Below are positions 151-32,857 of a stretch of DNA of 57,984 nucleotides, in pieces. The stretch is from Bacteroidota bacterium (GTDB lineage: Bacteria > Bacteroidota > Bacteroidia > Bacteroidales > NBLH01). The stretch spans positions 1-57,984 of the forward strand of contig JBDLJL010000006.1 in NCBI GenBank assembly GCA_039714415.1, written 5' to 3'. How positions within the stretch are numbered: position 1 is the stretch's first letter; each line of letters starts with the position of its first letter. Under the pieces are notes generated by a model. That model ran no database searches. It was given only the letters and a program-made list of their open reading frames with translations, and was not told the origin of the DNA. Both the position numbers and the translations under genes were made by a program.

Positions 151-277
151 TAGTCTTTGATAAGAAAACGTAAAAGACAAGGCTTTCGAAGTCCTGAAAA
201 CTAAGGAATTTACTTTTGTAAATGACTGTTTTCAAGACAAGAATAACGCAGTATTTGGCGTTTTTTTGCAAAGACTA
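151..277 (+). repeat. Structured dispersed element, copy A (terminal inverted repeats with nested stems)
   Basis: TAGTCTTTGATAAGAAAACG (151-170) is inverted against CGTTTTTTTGCAAAGACTA (259-277). The core CAAGGCTTTC...GAATTTAC-TTTT-GTAAATGA...GAATAACGCAG is shared with copies B and C read on their minus strand. Confidence 0.8.
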
Positions 278-4814: not shown

Positions 4815-4943
4815 TTAAGGCAACCTCTAAATATCCTAACTTCTTCGTTACTCTGATTTTTTAAGACATTCATTTACAGAAGTAAAATCAAGCCTAAAAA
4901 AATCAGAAAGCCTCGAATTTTGAATTTTTAGAGACCACCTTAA
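4815..4943 (-). repeat. Structured dispersed element, copy B (MITE-like, TTAA at both ends)
   Basis: TTAAGGCAACCTCTAAATA is inverted against TTTTTAGAGACCACCTTAA. Closely similar to 29398-29524. Internal stems TGATTTTTTAAGAC/GCCTAAAAAAATCA and TTTAC-AGAA-GTAAA. Confidence 0.88.
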
Positions 4944-5116: not shown

Positions 5117-7696
5117 ATGTTAAAACAAAGCAGTCTTAATGAAGTTGGTGAAAAAAGAATACTCTATCTGCTGGCAATTATTTCAATCGTTGGCTATTTA
5201 ATAGATATGCTTGCTGTTGCCCCCCCTCAATTAATTTTTATAATTAATATAATTGCCATTATTATAGTTTTTTTAACACTAATTCTTGAACATTATACCA
5301 TTTTCAGTAAAGTAAAATCCTTTGGTATTATTTCATATTTACTGATAATCAATATATTAACAAGTCACTATTTAGGCCTTAAAATTAATTCAGATGCTGA
5401 CATTTTGCGCTCATTGCTAATAATATGTGCACTTTTACCAATATCTGCCCTGGTAATTGGTAAAAAACATGCTATATATATTTTTACTATTTCAATTGCC
5501 TTTATTATTTCTTATAATCTCAATACAAACAATCATTATATTAGTAATAATATTTACATGTTTATTCTCATTATATTTGGCTATAGCATTGGTATATACT
5601 ACTTTATCAATCTGTTTGAGTTAAAAACAAAAAATGAACAATTCCTATCGTTGGAGCTTAAAAAAAATAACAATGACATCACTTTTTTAAACTCACTGGC
5701 TTTTGAAATGGTAGACTTTGCCTCTGAGAATGAAACTATTCCAAAAATACTAAAAAAAATAAAAAAACATACGGGAGCTAAATTTGCATCATTCAGTATA
5801 TATGATCCAAAACAACAAGCATTAATACTGCGCAGCATAGAAGCAGATGGAACTCTTTTAAAAGCTTATGTAAAACTTACCGGAAAGAAAATTCTTAACA
5901 CCGCTTCGCCTGTTACTAATAAAATGTATAATGAAATATTAGAGCAGGTGGTTGGCCTTAAAAATTCACTTACAGCAGTTACATTTGGCGCAATACCTGA
6001 AAACATTAGTAAATCATTTAGGAATTTAACAGGGATATCGCATTTTTATGGTATGGCACATATTATTTCGGGCAAACTGTATGGAACAACTATGTTGGCT
6101 TTTAAAGCAAAACAAAGCTTACCTAATAATGAACTTCTAAAATCTTATGCTCACCTTACAGCACTCTTATTGAGAAGAAACCTGATAGAAAAGCAATTAC
6201 AAGTAAGTGAAAATAAACTACGCAATATTACTGATAATATTTCAGATGTGATTATCAGAAGCAACATGGAATTAAAAACTACCTATATTAGCCCCTCTAT
6301 CAAAAAGCTAACTGGTGATACACCGGAATGCTTTTTAAAGAAAAGCCAGGAAGAAAGATACACAACCGAATCGATTAATAAAATCAATTCAATATTTTCA
6401 GAAGAGTTTGAAATAGAAAATGATCCCAAAGTCAATAAAAAGAGAACAAGAATTATTGAATTAGAGCTATTTAAAGCAGATGGCAAGAAAATTCATGTTT
6501 CAGCCCACACATCATTTATGCGTGATAGTGAAGGAAATGCAATTGGGGTTCTGAGTGTAATAAGAGATATTACAAAACGAAAACAGGCAGAACTAGCTCT
6601 TAATCAAAGTGAAGCTAAGTTTCGGTTATTGATTAATTCATTGGGTGAAGGAGTAATGATTTTAGATAAAAAGGGTGATATTGTTTTTTCTAATCCAGCA
6701 GCTGAGGGTTTAATGGAAACTGAATCTAAGCAGTTAGAAGGGAGCTCTATTTATGATTTTTTATCTAAACAAGATATTCAACTTGTAAATAAAGAAATTG
6801 AAAAACGAAATAGAGGACTATCAAACACCTATGAAGTCGAAATTATTTCCAAAAAGGGGAATATTAGAAATATCATAATTACTGCTACTCCTTATGTGAA
6901 TAATCAAATTTCTTTTCAGGGTTCACTGGTTATATTCAGAGATATTACTGAAATGAAAAAATCTGAAATTCAATTGAAAAAATATTCAAAAGAATTAAAA
7001 CAACTGAATTCGGATAAAGACCGGTTTATGCAGATCCTTGCCCATGATTTAAAAAGTCCATTTAACTCCATAATAGGTTTTTCAGACCTTCTATTAACTA
7101 ATCTTCACAAATACCCTGTTGACGAAATTGAAAAACAATTGACAGTTATAAATAGTATCTCACTCAAAACATTTGATCTATTAAACGATTTATTATTGTG
7201 GTCAACTTCACAATCTGGCAATTTACCTTTTAATCCTGAAAAACTTAATTTTATAGATATTTGCATAAATTCAATTGAAGAAAAAAAAGAACAGGCTTAT
7301 CAAAAAAATATTACAATAAAATGCCTTACAAACGATACAATTTATATTCAATCAGATAAAAATTTACTAAAAACGATATTGCGAAATTTAATATCTAATG
7401 CAATTAAATTCACCCATAAAAATGGACGAATTGATATCTCTGCTGTAAATAATGAAGATGCAACATTAGTAACTGTATCGGATAATGGAATTGGGATGAG
7501 CAGCGAAGACATATCAAAACTTTGGAATTTCGCTAAACCATATACAAATGAAGGTACTGCCAAAGAAAAAGGAACAGGTTTAGGTTTAGTTCTTTGCAAA
7601 GAATTTGTTGAGAAACATGGAGGAAAAATATGGGCTGAAAGCAAAGAAGGTAAAGGGTGTAGTTTTAAATTCACCCTACCATTAGGTAGCCTCTAA
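5117..7696 (+). CDS. Membrane sensor histidine kinase (TM region, GAF-like region, 2 PAS, HisKA, HATPase)
   Basis: N-terminal TM helices; two PAS/PAC ends (IRDITKRK, FRDITEMK); H-box LAHDLKSP; N-box NLISNAIKF; G boxes DNGIG and GTGLGL. Confidence 0.92.
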   Translation: MLKQSSLNEVGEKRILYLLAIISIVGYLIDMLAVAPPQLIFIINIIAIIIVFLTLILEHYTIFSKVKSFGIISYLLIINILTSHYLGLKINSDADILRSLLIICALLPISALVIGKKHAIYIFTISIAFIISYNLNTNNHYISNNIYMFILIIFGYSIGIYYFINLFELKTKNEQFLSLELKKNNNDITFLNSLAFEMVDFASENETIPKILKKIKKHTGAKFASFSIYDPKQQALILRSIEADGTLLKAYVKLTGKKILNTASPVTNKMYNEILEQVVGLKNSLTAVTFGAIPENISKSFRNLTGISHFYGMAHIISGKLYGTTMLAFKAKQSLPNNELLKSYAHLTALLLRRNLIEKQLQVSENKLRNITDNISDVIIRSNMELKTTYISPSIKKLTGDTPECFLKKSQEERYTTESINKINSIFSEEFEIENDPKVNKKRTRIIELELFKADGKKIHVSAHTSFMRDSEGNAIGVLSVIRDITKRKQAELALNQSEAKFRLLINSLGEGVMILDKKGDIVFSNPAAEGLMETESKQLEGSSIYDFLSKQDIQLVNKEIEKRNRGLSNTYEVEIISKKGNIRNIIITATPYVNNQISFQGSLVIFRDITEMKKSEIQLKKYSKELKQLNSDKDRFMQILAHDLKSPFNSIIGFSDLLLTNLHKYPVDEIEKQLTVINSISLKTFDLLNDLLLWSTSQSGNLPFNPEKLNFIDICINSIEEKKEQAYQKNITIKCLTNDTIYIQSDKNLLKTILRNLISNAIKFTHKNGRIDISAVNNEDATLVTVSDNGIGMSSEDISKLWNFAKPYTNEGTAKEKGTGLGLVLCKEFVEKHGGKIWAESKEGKGCSFKFTLPLGSL

Positions 7697-7709
7697 AAAT
7701 CCAAACTTC
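7683..7709 (-). repeat. Truncated end of the B/C-type element overlapping the kinase stop codon
   Basis: TAGGTAGCCTCTAAAAATCCAAACTTC matches the copy C end ATGGTAACCTCTAAAAATCCAAACTTC. Confidence 0.75.
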
Positions 7710-9789: not shown

Positions 9790-9862
9790 TGACCCGTCTG
9801 TGGCTCGAACACAGGACCCACGCCTTAAAAGGGCGTTGCTCTACCAACTGAGCTAACGAGTC
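9790..9862 (-). tRNA. tRNA-Lys (anticodon UUU), CCA not encoded
   Basis: Minus strand GACTCGTTAGCTCAGTTGGTAGAGCAACGCC-CTTTTAA-GGCGTGGGTCCTGTGTTCGAGCCACAGACGGGTCA folds into a full cloverleaf; acceptor stem GACTCGT/ACGGGTC. Confidence 0.97.
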
Positions 9863-27350: not shown

Positions 27351-29387
<2,037 letters not shown>

Positions 29388-29397
29388 GAAATTTTCT

Positions 29398-29524
29398 TAT
29401 GGTAACCTCTAAAAATCCAAACTTCATTGTTATACAATTTTTTTAAGACGCTCATTTACAGAAGTAAAATCGAGCCTTTAAAAAATTGAAAGCCTCGAAT
29501 TTTGATTTTTTAGAGAACACCTTA
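29398..29524 (-). repeat. Structured dispersed element, copy C
   Basis: GGTAACCTCTAAAAATC is inverted against GATTTTTTAGAGAACACC; shares TCATTTACAGAAGTAAAATC and GAAAGCCTCGAATTTTGA with copy B. Confidence 0.88.
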
Positions 29525-29527
29525 TGT

Positions 29528-29626: not shown

Positions 29627-32600
29627 CTACTCATCAACAGCAACTTCACCGAAAATATGTTGCATTATTTCAGTTTGGTCAACCAACAGATTATAGTAAT
29701 CAAATCTTTTTGCTAAAAGCAATGTGGTTTTGACTTTACCTTTTAGTTTAGTAACATTGGCATTCAAGTTAATACCAAGTGTTATTATATCATTTTTACC
29801 AAAAACAACAGGCTCGTTATTAGGATTTACAGCTTCAAGTTCCCCTCTCAACAAAATAACAACACTATTTGTGTTATCGTCATTTGTAATGTCTATTTCC
29901 TCACCTGCCTGAATAATTTTAACCCTGATAAATTTAGCCATTTTAGCAAGGTAATTTTCAGGGACACTAAAGAACATGGGGTGCTTTTTCAAATGTTTAA
30001 TACGGTCAGCAATTAAAAATCCATTGTTTGAAAGATTTTCAAGTAATTCTTTTTTATCATCCGACATTCTCTCCAGATAATCCGCGCACTTAATAGGGTT
30101 TTCTTCATAAATGATTTTAGCTGCCGTTGAATATACTAATTCATCAGGATGAAATAAACATACGAATATTTCATCAGGCATTTCACTTCTTCTAATTTTA
30201 TAAAGTGTCTTATTTACCTGTTCAGATGTCCATATTCCAATATCACTATATGACCTGGTTTTATCCTCCTGTTCAGCTCCTGATTTCTTTTTTGCATGAA
30301 GCCTACCCAAAAGGTCAATGGATTTTGTCATTGTCCACGGACCAACTTTGTCAAAATCTTTGATAATAATATTTTTTAACCTGTCTCTAAATTTCAAACG
30401 ATCCTGAGGGAAAAAAGAATTTAGTTTTTTTATTTTTTGACCAGAAGATATATCATCAAACAAAGGTATTAAAAGCTGTTTTGTTTCAAGGCTAATAAAA
30501 TTATCAATAATTTCTATGGCAAAAATAGTATTCTTCCCAATTATGTTCTTCTTGATAAGGTTAATTATCCGTGGTTCATAAAGAAAGCTTAGTAGTTTAA
30601 ATAAATTCTCAAAATTGTACTCCCGTTCCAGATCAAGTGCCTGAACAATTTTTAAAGTATTACGTTCTGTTTCAATATCTAATATACAGGCATAAATCCA
30701 TAGAATATTGTCAATAACTCCATCAAGTTTCTTTTTAATAATAGACTGTTCTTTTCCGTCTGCCTGATATTTACAAAAATATAACCCCGAGATTAATTCA
30801 GTCTGAACATTTCTGTCCGGATAATTTAAATATCTAACTAGTATTGATTTAGCTTTAGACGATCCATTTTTAGCAAGAATTTCAATTATTCTTAATAAAA
30901 CTTTAGAATCTTCTTCCTTTATGAAAAATTCCTCAAGCTCATCAAGAACCCTGTCACCCACTTCAAGTAATGCATCACCACAAATATGATAATATTCATC
31001 AGACCTAATTAAATCAACTAATTTTTTTATAAGCTTGGGTGATTTACTTTTACTTGCCAAATTAATAGCGGCACTTTTTATAATTTTGTCATCATCCTTT
31101 AGCAAACGGTTAATTAGCTTATCATCATATTCAATTAATCCTTTAACAAGAAGTTTCTCAATTAATAATTTATCACCAAAGGTCCATGATTTTATTAATT
31201 CATTAACTTCCCCCTTATTTATTTCTTTTAGGTTTGTGTAGTCAAGAATATTTTTTGCTTTAAATGCTAAATCTCTAATTTCTTCTGACTTATCAGCAAT
31301 ATATATTTTTTTTACTGAATGCATTATCCTTGTTCGCCATGATGGATCAATTTTACTCAAAATAGCATGTTTAATGCTATCTATACGCTTATTCAACAGG
31401 CTTGTAGCGTAGGGCTCCATAACACGAGGATTTGTTTCAGAAAGCAAATTAACACTCATCTGAACAACTTTGTCATTGAATTTTTTGAATTTTTTGGTTA
31501 GAAACTCACTGCCATAAAAATGCCGTGCTGAATCCCTTTTTTTATTCCGGCTGATATCAATAAGAATTTGCCTTAATCTTCCTTTATATGACAAATACAG
31601 CTGCCTTGCGACGAGTACCCAAACTATTAGTAGAGGAAGAATAATTATTGGATAATATTCAAGCCTGTAACCATCAGGAGTATTAAGAATAAAGTTTGTC
31701 AGAAACAATATTAGCCCGGCAACGGCTATTGATACCTGCATAACCACACCTACTTTAGTCTGAACGGCCATTTTTTGTCCACTTGGCAAAGGTTGATATA
31801 AGATATTAAAAGCAGGATCGTCCAACCCACGTCTTAAAATCCTCTCCATTGATTTATTAAGAGTCATTAAAGCCAAAAAGGCTATAGTAGCCACACCATA
31901 AGTCAATCCAATTATAAGAGAAATTGCAACAATCAATGTTATTGTAACAGGTAATATGGTAAGACCAAGCTTAACTCCATATTTACTGAGTATACGACTT
32001 GAAAAATAAGAAATTGCCAATTCACCAATTTTTAACCCACCTAAAGCGAGCGCCAAAAATTTTGATATCTCGGCCTCAGTTTTAAAATTCACTTTAATAC
32101 TTGAAAGGAATCCAAAATCCACAACATAAATAGCTACCATTGAAAATATTGCCGATAAAAAAATTAATCGAAAATATTTATCTTTTATTAAAACAAAAAA
32201 TTTGGTATCGCTTTGGCTAACTTGCTTAACAACTTCTTTTTGTGAAGATATTTTCAAAGTTTTATACAAAGCCAAAAGGATAAAAACGGCGGCAATAAGT
32301 CCTATATTCCCTATATGTAAAAGGTCATAAGAATTCCCAAGATATGGTAACAAAACACGTATAGAAAGATAACCTATAATTGATGCAATAACCCCACCCA
32401 TGTTCATTAAACCATACATCCGTTTTACCTGTGATAGATTTAGGAATTGTAGTGCCAGACCACCTGAAACAATACCCACTAACGAAATAAAAGGCCAGAC
32501 CCAAATAAATACGAAAAAACTTAAATATTTAGGATCAACATATGTTAAAGAGAACCTTGATACTAATGTTATTGCAAACATAAAAATAACAGCCCCTAAA

Positions 32601-32857
32601 AATAAGTTTTTATTGTTTATCCTTTTTTGCAATGAAGAATAAATTGTTGAGGTAAGATAACCTGCAATACCAGCAATTACATATGCAAGAGGTAGTTGTT
32701 CGCTTCCATAATTTTTGATAAAAACTGAGTTTGCCGGAACAAAATAAAAGGCAATAAAAAGACCAAGGAAGAATGAATGAAAAAACAATAATGTAAATTT
32801 CAAACCTTCTTCAGGCTTTAAATCAAACCATTTTATAAATATTTTGCTTAAACTCAT
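29627..32857 (-). CDS. Npt/TLC-like MFS transporter fused to HEAT-like repeats and a C-terminal cNMP-binding-like domain
   Basis: About 12 TM segments in the first ~420 aa with QVKRMYG and LRRGLDDPAFNILYQPL; helical repeat region; C-terminal LKKHPMFFSVPENYLAKMA...ILLRGEL resembles a degenerate cNMP domain. Confidence 0.75.
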   Translation of the reverse strand: MSLSKIFIKWFDLKPEEGLKFTLLFFHSFFLGLFIAFYFVPANSVFIKNYGSEQLPLAYVIAGIAGYLTSTIYSSLQKRINNKNLFLGAVIFMFAITLVSRFSLTYVDPKYLSFFVFIWVWPFISLVGIVSGGLALQFLNLSQVKRMYGLMNMGGVIASIIGYLSIRVLLPYLGNSYDLLHIGNIGLIAAVFILLALYKTLKISSQKEVVKQVSQSDTKFFVLIKDKYFRLIFLSAIFSMVAIYVVDFGFLSSIKVNFKTEAEISKFLALALGGLKIGELAISYFSSRILSKYGVKLGLTILPVTITLIVAISLIIGLTYGVATIAFLALMTLNKSMERILRRGLDDPAFNILYQPLPSGQKMAVQTKVGVVMQVSIAVAGLILFLTNFILNTPDGYRLEYYPIIILPLLIVWVLVARQLYLSYKGRLRQILIDISRNKKRDSARHFYGSEFLTKKFKKFNDKVVQMSVNLLSETNPRVMEPYATSLLNKRIDSIKHAILSKIDPSWRTRIMHSVKKIYIADKSEEIRDLAFKAKNILDYTNLKEINKGEVNELIKSWTFGDKLLIEKLLVKGLIEYDDKLINRLLKDDDKIIKSAAINLASKSKSPKLIKKLVDLIRSDEYYHICGDALLEVGDRVLDELEEFFIKEEDSKVLLRIIEILAKNGSSKAKSILVRYLNYPDRNVQTELISGLYFCKYQADGKEQSIIKKKLDGVIDNILWIYACILDIETERNTLKIVQALDLEREYNFENLFKLLSFLYEPRIINLIKKNIIGKNTIFAIEIIDNFISLETKQLLIPLFDDISSGQKIKKLNSFFPQDRLKFRDRLKNIIIKDFDKVGPWTMTKSIDLLGRLHAKKKSGAEQEDKTRSYSDIGIWTSEQVNKTLYKIRRSEMPDEIFVCLFHPDELVYSTAAKIIYEENPIKCADYLERMSDDKKELLENLSNNGFLIADRIKHLKKHPMFFSVPENYLAKMAKFIRVKIIQAGEEIDITNDDNTNSVVILLRGELEAVNPNNEPVVFGKNDIITLGINLNANVTKLKGKVKTTLLLAKRFDYYNLLVDQTEIMQHIFGEVAVDE

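Follow-up and report, generated by a model that had tools for sequence, protein, structure and literature searches.

The window analysed here is a stretch of 57,984 nucleotides, contig JBDLJL010000006.1 (contig C6 below) of a Bacteroidota genome of the order Bacteroidales (5.89 Mb, 470 contigs, 32.9% G+C). It contains three dispersed copies, A, B and C, of a short repeat, and the question raised by this locus is what kind of element keeps its middle better than its ends. An earlier note on this DNA had described three copies with a shared skeleton and had regarded their pattern of conservation as the reverse of that of ordinary MITEs (miniature transposable elements with inverted repeats). The copies were present at the places described, and their skeleton was confirmed: an outer stem, CRAGGCTTTC, stem 2, GA, wTTTAC, a 4-nt loop, GTAAAT, GA, the second strand of stem 2, TAAC..AG and the second strand of the outer stem. 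The contrast drawn with MITEs did not hold: the element is itself one, bounded by terminal inverted repeats and 4-bp target-site duplications and related to an IS5-like insertion sequence. It has very probably been moved by transposases of the IS5-like group, and we are fairly confident that the fold adopted by one strand of its cargo is under selection.

From outside to inside, the core of the element comprises the outer stem, a junction (J1), stem 2, a second junction (J2) and the apical hairpin. In J1, AAGGCUU stands opposite UAACGMA; in J2, a tandem GA stands opposite GA and is capped by the apical hairpin UUUAC-UNNU-GUAAA. The boundaries of the three copies were set from the flanking 4-bp target-site duplications, which gave the following features of the window:

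152-276, plus strand: copy A, complete element of the subfamily 4 type with one left repeat; ends AGTCTTTG...CAAAGACT; 109 bits with covariance model R1
148-151, no strand: target-site duplication ATTT to the left of copy A, read from the sequence
277-280, no strand: target-site duplication ATTT to the right of copy A, overlapping the stop codon of the minus-strand open reading frame (ORF) 275-1369
179-185, plus strand: 5' strand of junction J1 of copy A, AAGGCTT; region identity 0.79
206-225, plus strand: junction J2 with the apical hairpin of copy A, GA-ATTTAC-TTTT-GTAAAT-GA; helix 5 paired at 99.4%
244-250, plus strand: 3' strand of junction J1 of copy A, TAACGCA; region identity 0.81
4819-4939, minus strand: copy B, complete element of subfamily 1; ends GGTGGTCTCTAAAAA...TATTTAGAGGTTGCC
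4815-4818 and 4940-4943: target-site duplications TTAA of copy B
4914-4908, 4889-4870 and 4850-4844, minus strand: J1 5' strand, apical hairpin with its GA flanks and J1 3' strand of copy B
29401-29521, minus strand: copy C, complete element of subfamily 1
29397-29400 and 29522-29525: target-site duplications ATAA of copy C
29496-29490, 29471-29452 and 29432-29426, minus strand: J1 5' strand, apical hairpin with its GA flanks and degenerate J1 3' strand (TAACAAT) of copy C
7685-7709, minus strand: remnant (25 nt) of the right end of a subfamily-1 element, reading GGTAGCCTCTAAAAATCCAAACTTC on the plus strand

The GA dinucleotides flank the apical hairpin in all three copies, and the last block of copy C is degenerate, both as the earlier note had it. 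The calculated RNA fold of copy A reached −39.3 kcal/mol (z = −5.6), against −31.9 kcal/mol for the opposite strand; the corresponding values were −37.1 and −20.5 kcal/mol for copy B and −35.6 and −29.9 kcal/mol for copy C. Copy B lies between two plus-strand ORFs, and copy C between the convergent ORFs 27363-29387 (plus) and 29627-32857 (minus). Near-twins of copy B, 96.7–99.2% identical to it, are found on contigs C184, C9 and C4, and movement has therefore been recent. The remnant at 7685-7709 shows that the element also provides gene ends, as its CTCTAAAAA contributes GGT AGC CTC as the final codons, together with the TAA stop (7694-7696), to ORF 5117-7696, which encodes 859 aa. A promoter/terminator scan additionally marked a terminator-like site at 245-262 on the plus strand, inside copy A. 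It corresponds to a local alternative hairpin that the conserved AACGC of J1 can form with GCGTT in the right end, with a run of T after it. Such an alternative fold was seen only in subfamilies with ..CGTC../..GGCG.. outer stems and is not a feature of the family.

An iterated nhmmer search started from copies A, B and C returned 253 matches, which merged into 156 distinct loci in this genome; many loci were matched on both strands because the element is nearly palindromic. This number is far above what chance would give. The element was near full length at 121 of the loci; 12 lay within 150 bp of a contig end, 20 were at contig edges and two were inside crude ORF calls. In the window the element measures 121–125 bp, as compared with about 150 bp for the form commonest elsewhere, and it has no coding capacity. 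The 119 full copies with flanks were grouped into subfamilies of 71 (the type of copies B and C), 10, 10, 9 (the type of copy A), 5, 3 and 3 members, with 8 singletons. Their ends vary, yet all share one repeat, consisting of (A/G)GTG, about five variable bases and a T- and A-rich run, or (A/G)GTGnnnnnTnnnRAAA. The terminal inverted repeats are GGTGgtCTCTAAAAA / TTTTTAGAGGTTaCC in subfamily 1, whose members span GGTG.. to ..(C/T)ACC, and AGTGYCTGTCCATAAAGTC / GACTTTATGGACAAACACT in the widespread type. The ends of copy A, previously thought unrelated to those of copies B and C, are diverged versions of this same repeat, joined to them through intermediate subfamilies and the ends of related insertion sequences.

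Two further groups of sequences in this genome carry ends of this kind. Mini elements of 45 bp that share the terminal repeats and have AT-rich flanks occur at C15:9396-9440, C35:25415-25459, C85:6023-6067 and C273:1158-1202; in these the outer left repeat is joined straight to the ..TAACGAAG.. right arm, as if deleted across a short ATAA match. Similar ends surround other cargos in elements of 131–133 bp (C12:49803-49933 and C426:469-601) and of about 200 bp (C21:13305-13501, C99:9418-9617, C242:2042-2244 and at least 12 further contigs), the latter forming a family of many copies at 80–96% identity. The description of the element as a core carried between ends is a fair one, since the same kind of ends bears these other cargos.

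The evidence for transposition comes from the sequences immediately outside the element. The flanking 4-mers were identical on both sides in 40 of the 67 subfamily-1 copies that could be anchored (4 of the 71 could not); of the remainder, 15 matched at three of the four positions, 5 at two, 4 at one and 3 at none. Among the 66 copies with enough flank for controls, 40 had identical 4-mers, as compared with 0 and 2 at offset positions, and 2000 shuffles of the partners produced 6.9 identical pairs on average and at most 16. The duplications include non-palindromic ones (CAAA, TTAT, ATAA and TATG), and a longer inverted repeat is therefore excluded as their explanation. In other taxa, 4-bp AT-rich duplications were likewise seen by eye outside AGTG...CACT. 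Comparison with a congener, G004, was consistent with insertion at copy C: the orthologues of its convergent neighbours are 111 nt apart in that genome, as opposed to about 241 nt here, and the element is absent. The G004 spacer is thus about 130 nt shorter, yet it is too diverged for the exact empty site to be read. Synteny around copy B was lost in the congener comparison.

The likely source of the transposition activity was found among IS5-like insertion sequences. Contig C143 of this genome carries a 1699-bp insertion sequence that encodes a 458-aa transposase with DUF772 and DDE_Tnp_1_2 domains, has the ends AGGGTCTGCCTGTAAAT.. and ..ATTTACGGACAAACCCT and is flanked by the 4-bp duplication ATTT. 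In Pfam, the protein passes the DUF772 cut-off (32.4 versus 23.1); for DDE_Tnp_1_2 it scored 24.7 as a protein, with a cut-off of 29.2, and 28.9–29.4 in the genome scan. The homologous element of congener G002 ends in AGGGCAACTCTAAAAATTCACAA and has 13 consecutive bases in common with the subfamily-1 MITE end; that of congener G004 ends in AGGGTCTGCCTAAAAAT. Duplications of 4 bp occur in the IS5 group, as described in ISfinder. Among 41 related genomes the transposase was matched in 7, all of them within the 21 carriers of the element (one-sided Fisher test, 0.005, the genomes being kin and not independent). Inverted pairs of the end motif 250–5000 bp apart numbered just two in this genome, both trivial, and the end motifs at contig edges yielded a single candidate, C201, without continuation. 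The transposases of IS4 (4 genes) and IS1634 (2 genes) were also considered as sources and rejected, as their ends are unrelated.

All three IS5-like elements (L184 on C143, L185 in G002 and L186 in G004) have a conserved hairpin close to their right end, 3' of the transposase stop (about 65 nt from it in L184, by eye). In L185 its sequence is GTAAAC-TATT-GTTTAC, of which L184 and L186 have close variants; the hairpin consists of half-site words of the MITE apical stem in everted order. In the three insertion sequences read, the subterminal parts did not show the cargo hairpin of the MITE. The genome also holds Y1 transposase genes of the IS200/IS605 or RAYT type, four of them intact and one broken:

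contig C51, 7267-7605: Y1 transposase gene
contig C186, 5925-6266: Y1 transposase gene
contig C138, 12340-12684: Y1 transposase gene
contig C395, 1188-1532: Y1 transposase gene
contig C103, 11636-11972: Y1 transposase gene

Measurement of conservation across 43 diverse copies confirmed that the middle is the best-kept part. The two strands of J1 had mean pairwise identities of 0.79 and 0.81, and J2 with the apical hairpin one of 0.77, as against 0.55 for both ends and 0.51–0.59 for the stems. In the same set RNAalifold returned 32 base pairs, 28 of them with compensatory change. The covariance model (R1) aligned 109 matches from other genomes, of which 108 were distinct. In these foreign copies 91.1% of cells were paired, compared with 72.3% in shuffled alignments, and 29 of the 32 stem pairs had changed on both sides. 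The covariation score was 0.529, versus 0.194 in shuffles (none of 500 reached the observed value) and 0.07–0.12 in slid controls. The covariance-model check proposed in the earlier note thus recovered more copies from other genomes, and its claim of covarying stems was upheld for both stem 2 and the outer stem. Compensatory changes keep the hairpin in this family as they do in MITEs of the ERIC and bcr1 type.

The fold also distinguishes between the strands. The mean minimum free energy of the RNA was −43.8 kcal/mol on the strand in which the skeleton is written (the top strand) and −31.6 kcal/mol on the opposite one. The top strand was more stable by 12–15 kcal/mol; of the 119 copies in this genome 113 folded better on it, as did all 82 from other taxa. 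Cells with G.U outnumbered cells with A.C by 144 to 26 in one count and by 307 to 83 in the other; in the latter, G.U was ahead at 23 of the 32 pairs, A.C at 3, and the two were equal at 6. Private single departures from the Watson-Crick consensus pairs of subfamily 1 led to G.T in 80 cases and to A.C in 31. Junction and apical conservation, strong covariation and folding on one strand all point to a core under selection, which had been proposed from the three window copies.

Several parts of the core are optional or exchangeable. In the form commonest elsewhere, as well as in subfamilies 3–5 here, an outer left repeat L1 (AGTGYCTGTCCATAAAGTC) is followed by a direct copy, L2, which pairs with the single right repeat; copies A, B and C have one left repeat each. 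J1 exists in a variant in which U is replaced by G on the left and by C on the right (AAGGCG.. with ..CAACG), which suggests that the two changed bases face each other. A hairpin of 24–26 nt or a piece of about 60 nt may be inserted at a fixed point after GUAAAU. Another optional hairpin, inside AAG|GCUU, covaries, with UUCCGC/GCGGAA in this genome as opposed to CUCCGA/UCGGAG in locus L073. In some copies the apical stem has been swapped for other stems with retention of GA..UGA. These optional modules were found almost solely inside the family.

Model R1 detected the element in 9 of the 11 congeners and in 11 of the 29 other families of the order. The copy numbers in three of the 21 carriers among the 41 relatives were at least 82 (G006), 63 (G039) and 43 (G032). 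When one genome per species was scanned for the motif, at least 115 stretches were obtained, with 80 loci among the matches listed. These listed matches came from Bacteroidales metagenome-assembled genomes (MAGs), Marinilabiliaceae, Prolixibacteraceae, Draconibacterium, Saccharicrinis, Geofilum, Lentimicrobiaceae and Salinivirgaceae, and further from Vicingaceae, Cryomorpha ignava, Saprospiraceae, Chitinophagales and two MAGs labelled Chlorobiota; the core is thus represented among them in the orders Bacteroidales, Flavobacteriales and Chitinophagales and in the two Chlorobiota MAGs. None of 150 genomes in an even sample of the phylum contained it in a search of low sensitivity, in which 22 first-look candidates per genome were scored. 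Plasmid and phage collections (blastn) and viral contigs (pattern scan) gave no match. This patchy distribution is as expected of a horizontally moving element. No neighbouring gene recurred among the 80 loci listed from other taxa, the largest cluster being of three ORFs that overlap the element itself. Copies in the complete chromosome G191 are interleaved on the two strands (10 plus, 9 minus), and no replichore pattern was seen in three complete chromosomes with 4, 19 and 7 copies, a comparison of low power.

The explanation that we favour, with moderate confidence when taken as a whole, is that of a MITE moved in trans, the cargo of which works as a fold of one strand. DDE transposases of the IS5-like group (DUF772 with DDE_Tnp_1_2) would bind the terminal inverted repeats of the non-coding element, move it in trans and leave 4-bp AT-rich target-site duplications. 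The cargo between the ends is one long hairpin broken by J1 and J2; its stems turn over by compensatory change, and the junctions, the apical stem and folding on one strand are kept across orders of Bacteroidota. Most likely, RNA produced by read-through of a neighbouring gene would fold on the top strand and could then serve a protein of the host or of the element as its site, or mark an RNA end or a point of processing; with such a role the element would remain tolerated or useful. RNA is the first choice because structured RNAs are marked by tolerance of G.U, tandem G.A pairs, asymmetric junctions that are conserved and optional stems that covary. Mobility, the tie to the insertion-sequence group, covariation and strand asymmetry are shown by the data; the type of the folding molecule and its role are inferred, and we place the chance that the fold acts as RNA slightly short of even. 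Precedents are known in bcr1 and ERIC (PMC3184786).

A number of observations weigh against this explanation. The neighbours of the copies in this genome even lean towards the antisense of the folding strand (52 with both antisense, 29 with both sense, 32 divergent and 21 convergent). In other taxa, 82 copies were considered, of which 22 were at a locus edge and 4 inside an ORF; the remaining 56 were oriented nearly at random (16 antisense, 15 sense, 14 divergent and 11 convergent). Of the listed sequencing records that hold this DNA none is RNA, the two entries being DNA contigs from one marine-metagenome study. With such near-random or antisense orientation, many copies would be unable to yield top-strand RNA by read-through, and no promoter inside the element was seen by eye on comparison with the Bacteroidetes consensus. 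On the side of mobility, the C143 transposase scored 172.7 bits with NCBIfam IS5_1, below the cut-off of 275, and the copy-rich draft MAGs G006, G032 and G039 gave no match to the transposase group. The search for a transposase sharing the ends, as advised in the earlier note, succeeded in part: IS5-like relatives with resembling ends were found (C143, G002 and G004), but no insertion sequence with ends identical to those of the MITE was found. Finally, the covariation and G.U counts are counts of cells in related copies and not of independent events; alignment A3 was fitted to the top-strand model, and 80 of its 99 source loci were chosen by a pattern that fixes the junction motifs.

The last of these points would also suit a purely selfish palindromic MITE, an explanation that we regard as unlikely. 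It holds that the junctions and the G.U excess were inherited from one recently spread founder through horizontal transfer, and that the stems stay paired only because copying or repair of foldback DNA treats it as a palindrome. The patchy occurrence (21 of 41 relatives but none of the 150 genomes across the phylum), the very similar copies in different families (E about 1e-20), the random orientation with respect to genes and the dependence among counted cells all agree with it. A single founder does not readily account for complete turnover of the stems between subfamilies and taxa with the junctions kept, nor for a G.U excess that extends over 23 of 32 pairs rather than founder positions alone and recurs among private changes (80 versus 31). 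The optional hairpins covary as well. The strand gap of 12–15 kcal/mol is not predicted, because a mechanism acting on a DNA palindrome treats both strands alike. The main alternative is a fold of single-stranded DNA, the top strand being used in a strand-specific step of transposition or replication or as a substrate of an HUH/Y1 enzyme. Tandem G.A pairs are stable in DNA also. Strand-specific folding with tolerance of G.T is compatible with such a fold, which would be independent of the direction of host transcription and in this respect fits the random orientation; the genome, moreover, has the five Y1 genes listed above. We still judge it rather improbable: 4-bp duplications and terminal inverted repeats mark double-strand DDE transposition and not that of IS200/IS605 or REP/RAYT, no replichore pattern appeared in G191 (at low power), and neither the element nor its apical-hairpin and right-junction motifs were found within 400 nt of the five Y1 genes. 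The 6-nt left-junction motif AGGCTT was present near three of them. The suggestion that the core is the hairpin substrate of a single-strand (HUH) transposase was accordingly not borne out, in view of the duplications and the lack of any copy near these genes.

A free-standing, non-mobile family of non-coding RNA (a ribozyme or a protein-binding RNA), with repeats that merely resemble transposon ends, would account for the conserved junctions, the covarying and optional stems and the lack of an Rfam match. It is contradicted by the controlled target-site duplications, by 156 copies, by the same ends around other cargos and in 45-bp deletion derivatives, by the lack of a recurring neighbour gene in the 80 loci listed and by the absence of the element from the orthologous G004 spacer, and is very improbable. 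An RNA mimic of CRISPR repeats, acting as an anti-CRISPR decoy, is scarcely credible. It derives from a resemblance, in which the apical 5-bp stem and 4-nt loop come within one base pair of the Cas12a repeat hairpin. This genome and its 11 congeners, 9 of which carry the element, gave no match to cas12a (TIGR04330), and among the 41 relatives the gene was present in two, G039 with 63 copies and G013 with none. A crude array scan found no CRISPR array in this genome, and no CRISPR-DR family of Rfam was matched at a meaningful score. Tandem repeats other than CRISPR arrays were noted at C138:8994-9803, where a 94-bp unit lies on both sides of a small ORF, and at C111:4904-5103, where a unit of about 100 bp that resembles a tRNA fragment is present three times and adjoins a tRNA-like sequence.

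MITEs are usually treated as junk with important ends and a drifting middle, whereas here the middle is the best-kept part. Should the fold that we favour as the working part of the cargo prove to be a functional RNA or single-stranded DNA, the family would represent a defined and testable transposon that spreads a structured nucleic-acid module. A bolder proposal, possible but on the whole doubtful, is that the cargo constitutes a new class of functional structured RNA with two non-Watson-Crick junctions and optional stems, spread by IS5-like MITEs. If true, such an RNA might bind a protein, be processed, cleave itself or act as a cofactor of its own transposition, and its 'gene' would be a DNA transposon. 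In practical terms, the family accounts for about 150 intergenic repeats of this genome, and probably for some of its contig breaks too, and could be masked or annotated in MAGs of marine Bacteroidota.

The earlier note had been unable to match the element to a known family, and the database comparison agreed with it. At the gathering thresholds of Rfam 15, the sole match of the window was a tRNA gene (9790-9862, minus strand); in E-value mode copies A and B gave hairpin noise only, with a best score of 23.6 bits against a gathering score of 100. A description of the family was not found in the literature searched, including 10.1101/2024.01.18.576219 and PMC3184786; the supplementary tables of the 2024 MITE census may list it.

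Among known systems, the IS5-family insertion sequences, with a relative on C143 and others in congeners, share with the MITE ends that start with (A)GG/GGTG and run into CTCTAAAAA or CTGTAAAT, as well as the 4-bp AT-rich duplications; the MITE differs in having no transposase and in carrying a cargo hairpin not seen in the subterminal parts of those read. The REP and REPIN sequences, with RAYT, and the palindromes derived from IS200/IS605 are likewise short and dispersed, and the enzyme there recognises a single-strand fold. They lack a target-site duplication and adjoin Y1 transposase genes, and the present element is the opposite on both counts. The Correia (NEMIS) element of Neisseria is a MITE that forms hairpins in transcripts and changes the expression of neighbouring genes, according to PMC3184786. 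It resembles the present element as a MITE with hairpins, but has TA duplications, IHF sites and promoters, and its ends are conserved instead of an internal junction.

The closest parallels are ERIC and bcr1. ERIC (also IRU), a MITE of about 127 bp in Enterobacteriaceae, is likewise a small imperfect palindrome that lies dispersed between genes, has terminal inverted repeats and makes a short duplication, and its longer variants arise from insertion at fixed internal points. It duplicates TA rather than 4 bp and belongs to another host phylum. The conservation of two non-Watson-Crick junctions and the measured one-strand bias set the present element apart from it. No sequence similarity between the two was found, ERIC itself not being among the sequences compared. 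Co-transcription of ERIC produces a long RNA hairpin, and its effects on mRNA through RNase E vary with orientation, as stated in PMC3184786. In bcr1 of the Bacillus cereus group (about 155 bp), a mobile repeat with short direct-repeat flanks, the duplications are of 5 bp, the fold is cruciform-like with two stem-loops and the hosts are Firmicutes. The same paper reports that bcr1 is transcribed and that compensatory base changes maintain its RNA structure. MITEs with a conserved hairpin of the RNA type are as a kind already known, ERIC and bcr1 being examples; what is new is the phylum, the link to IS5-like insertion sequences, the two conserved non-canonical junctions with their optional stems and the measured strand bias.

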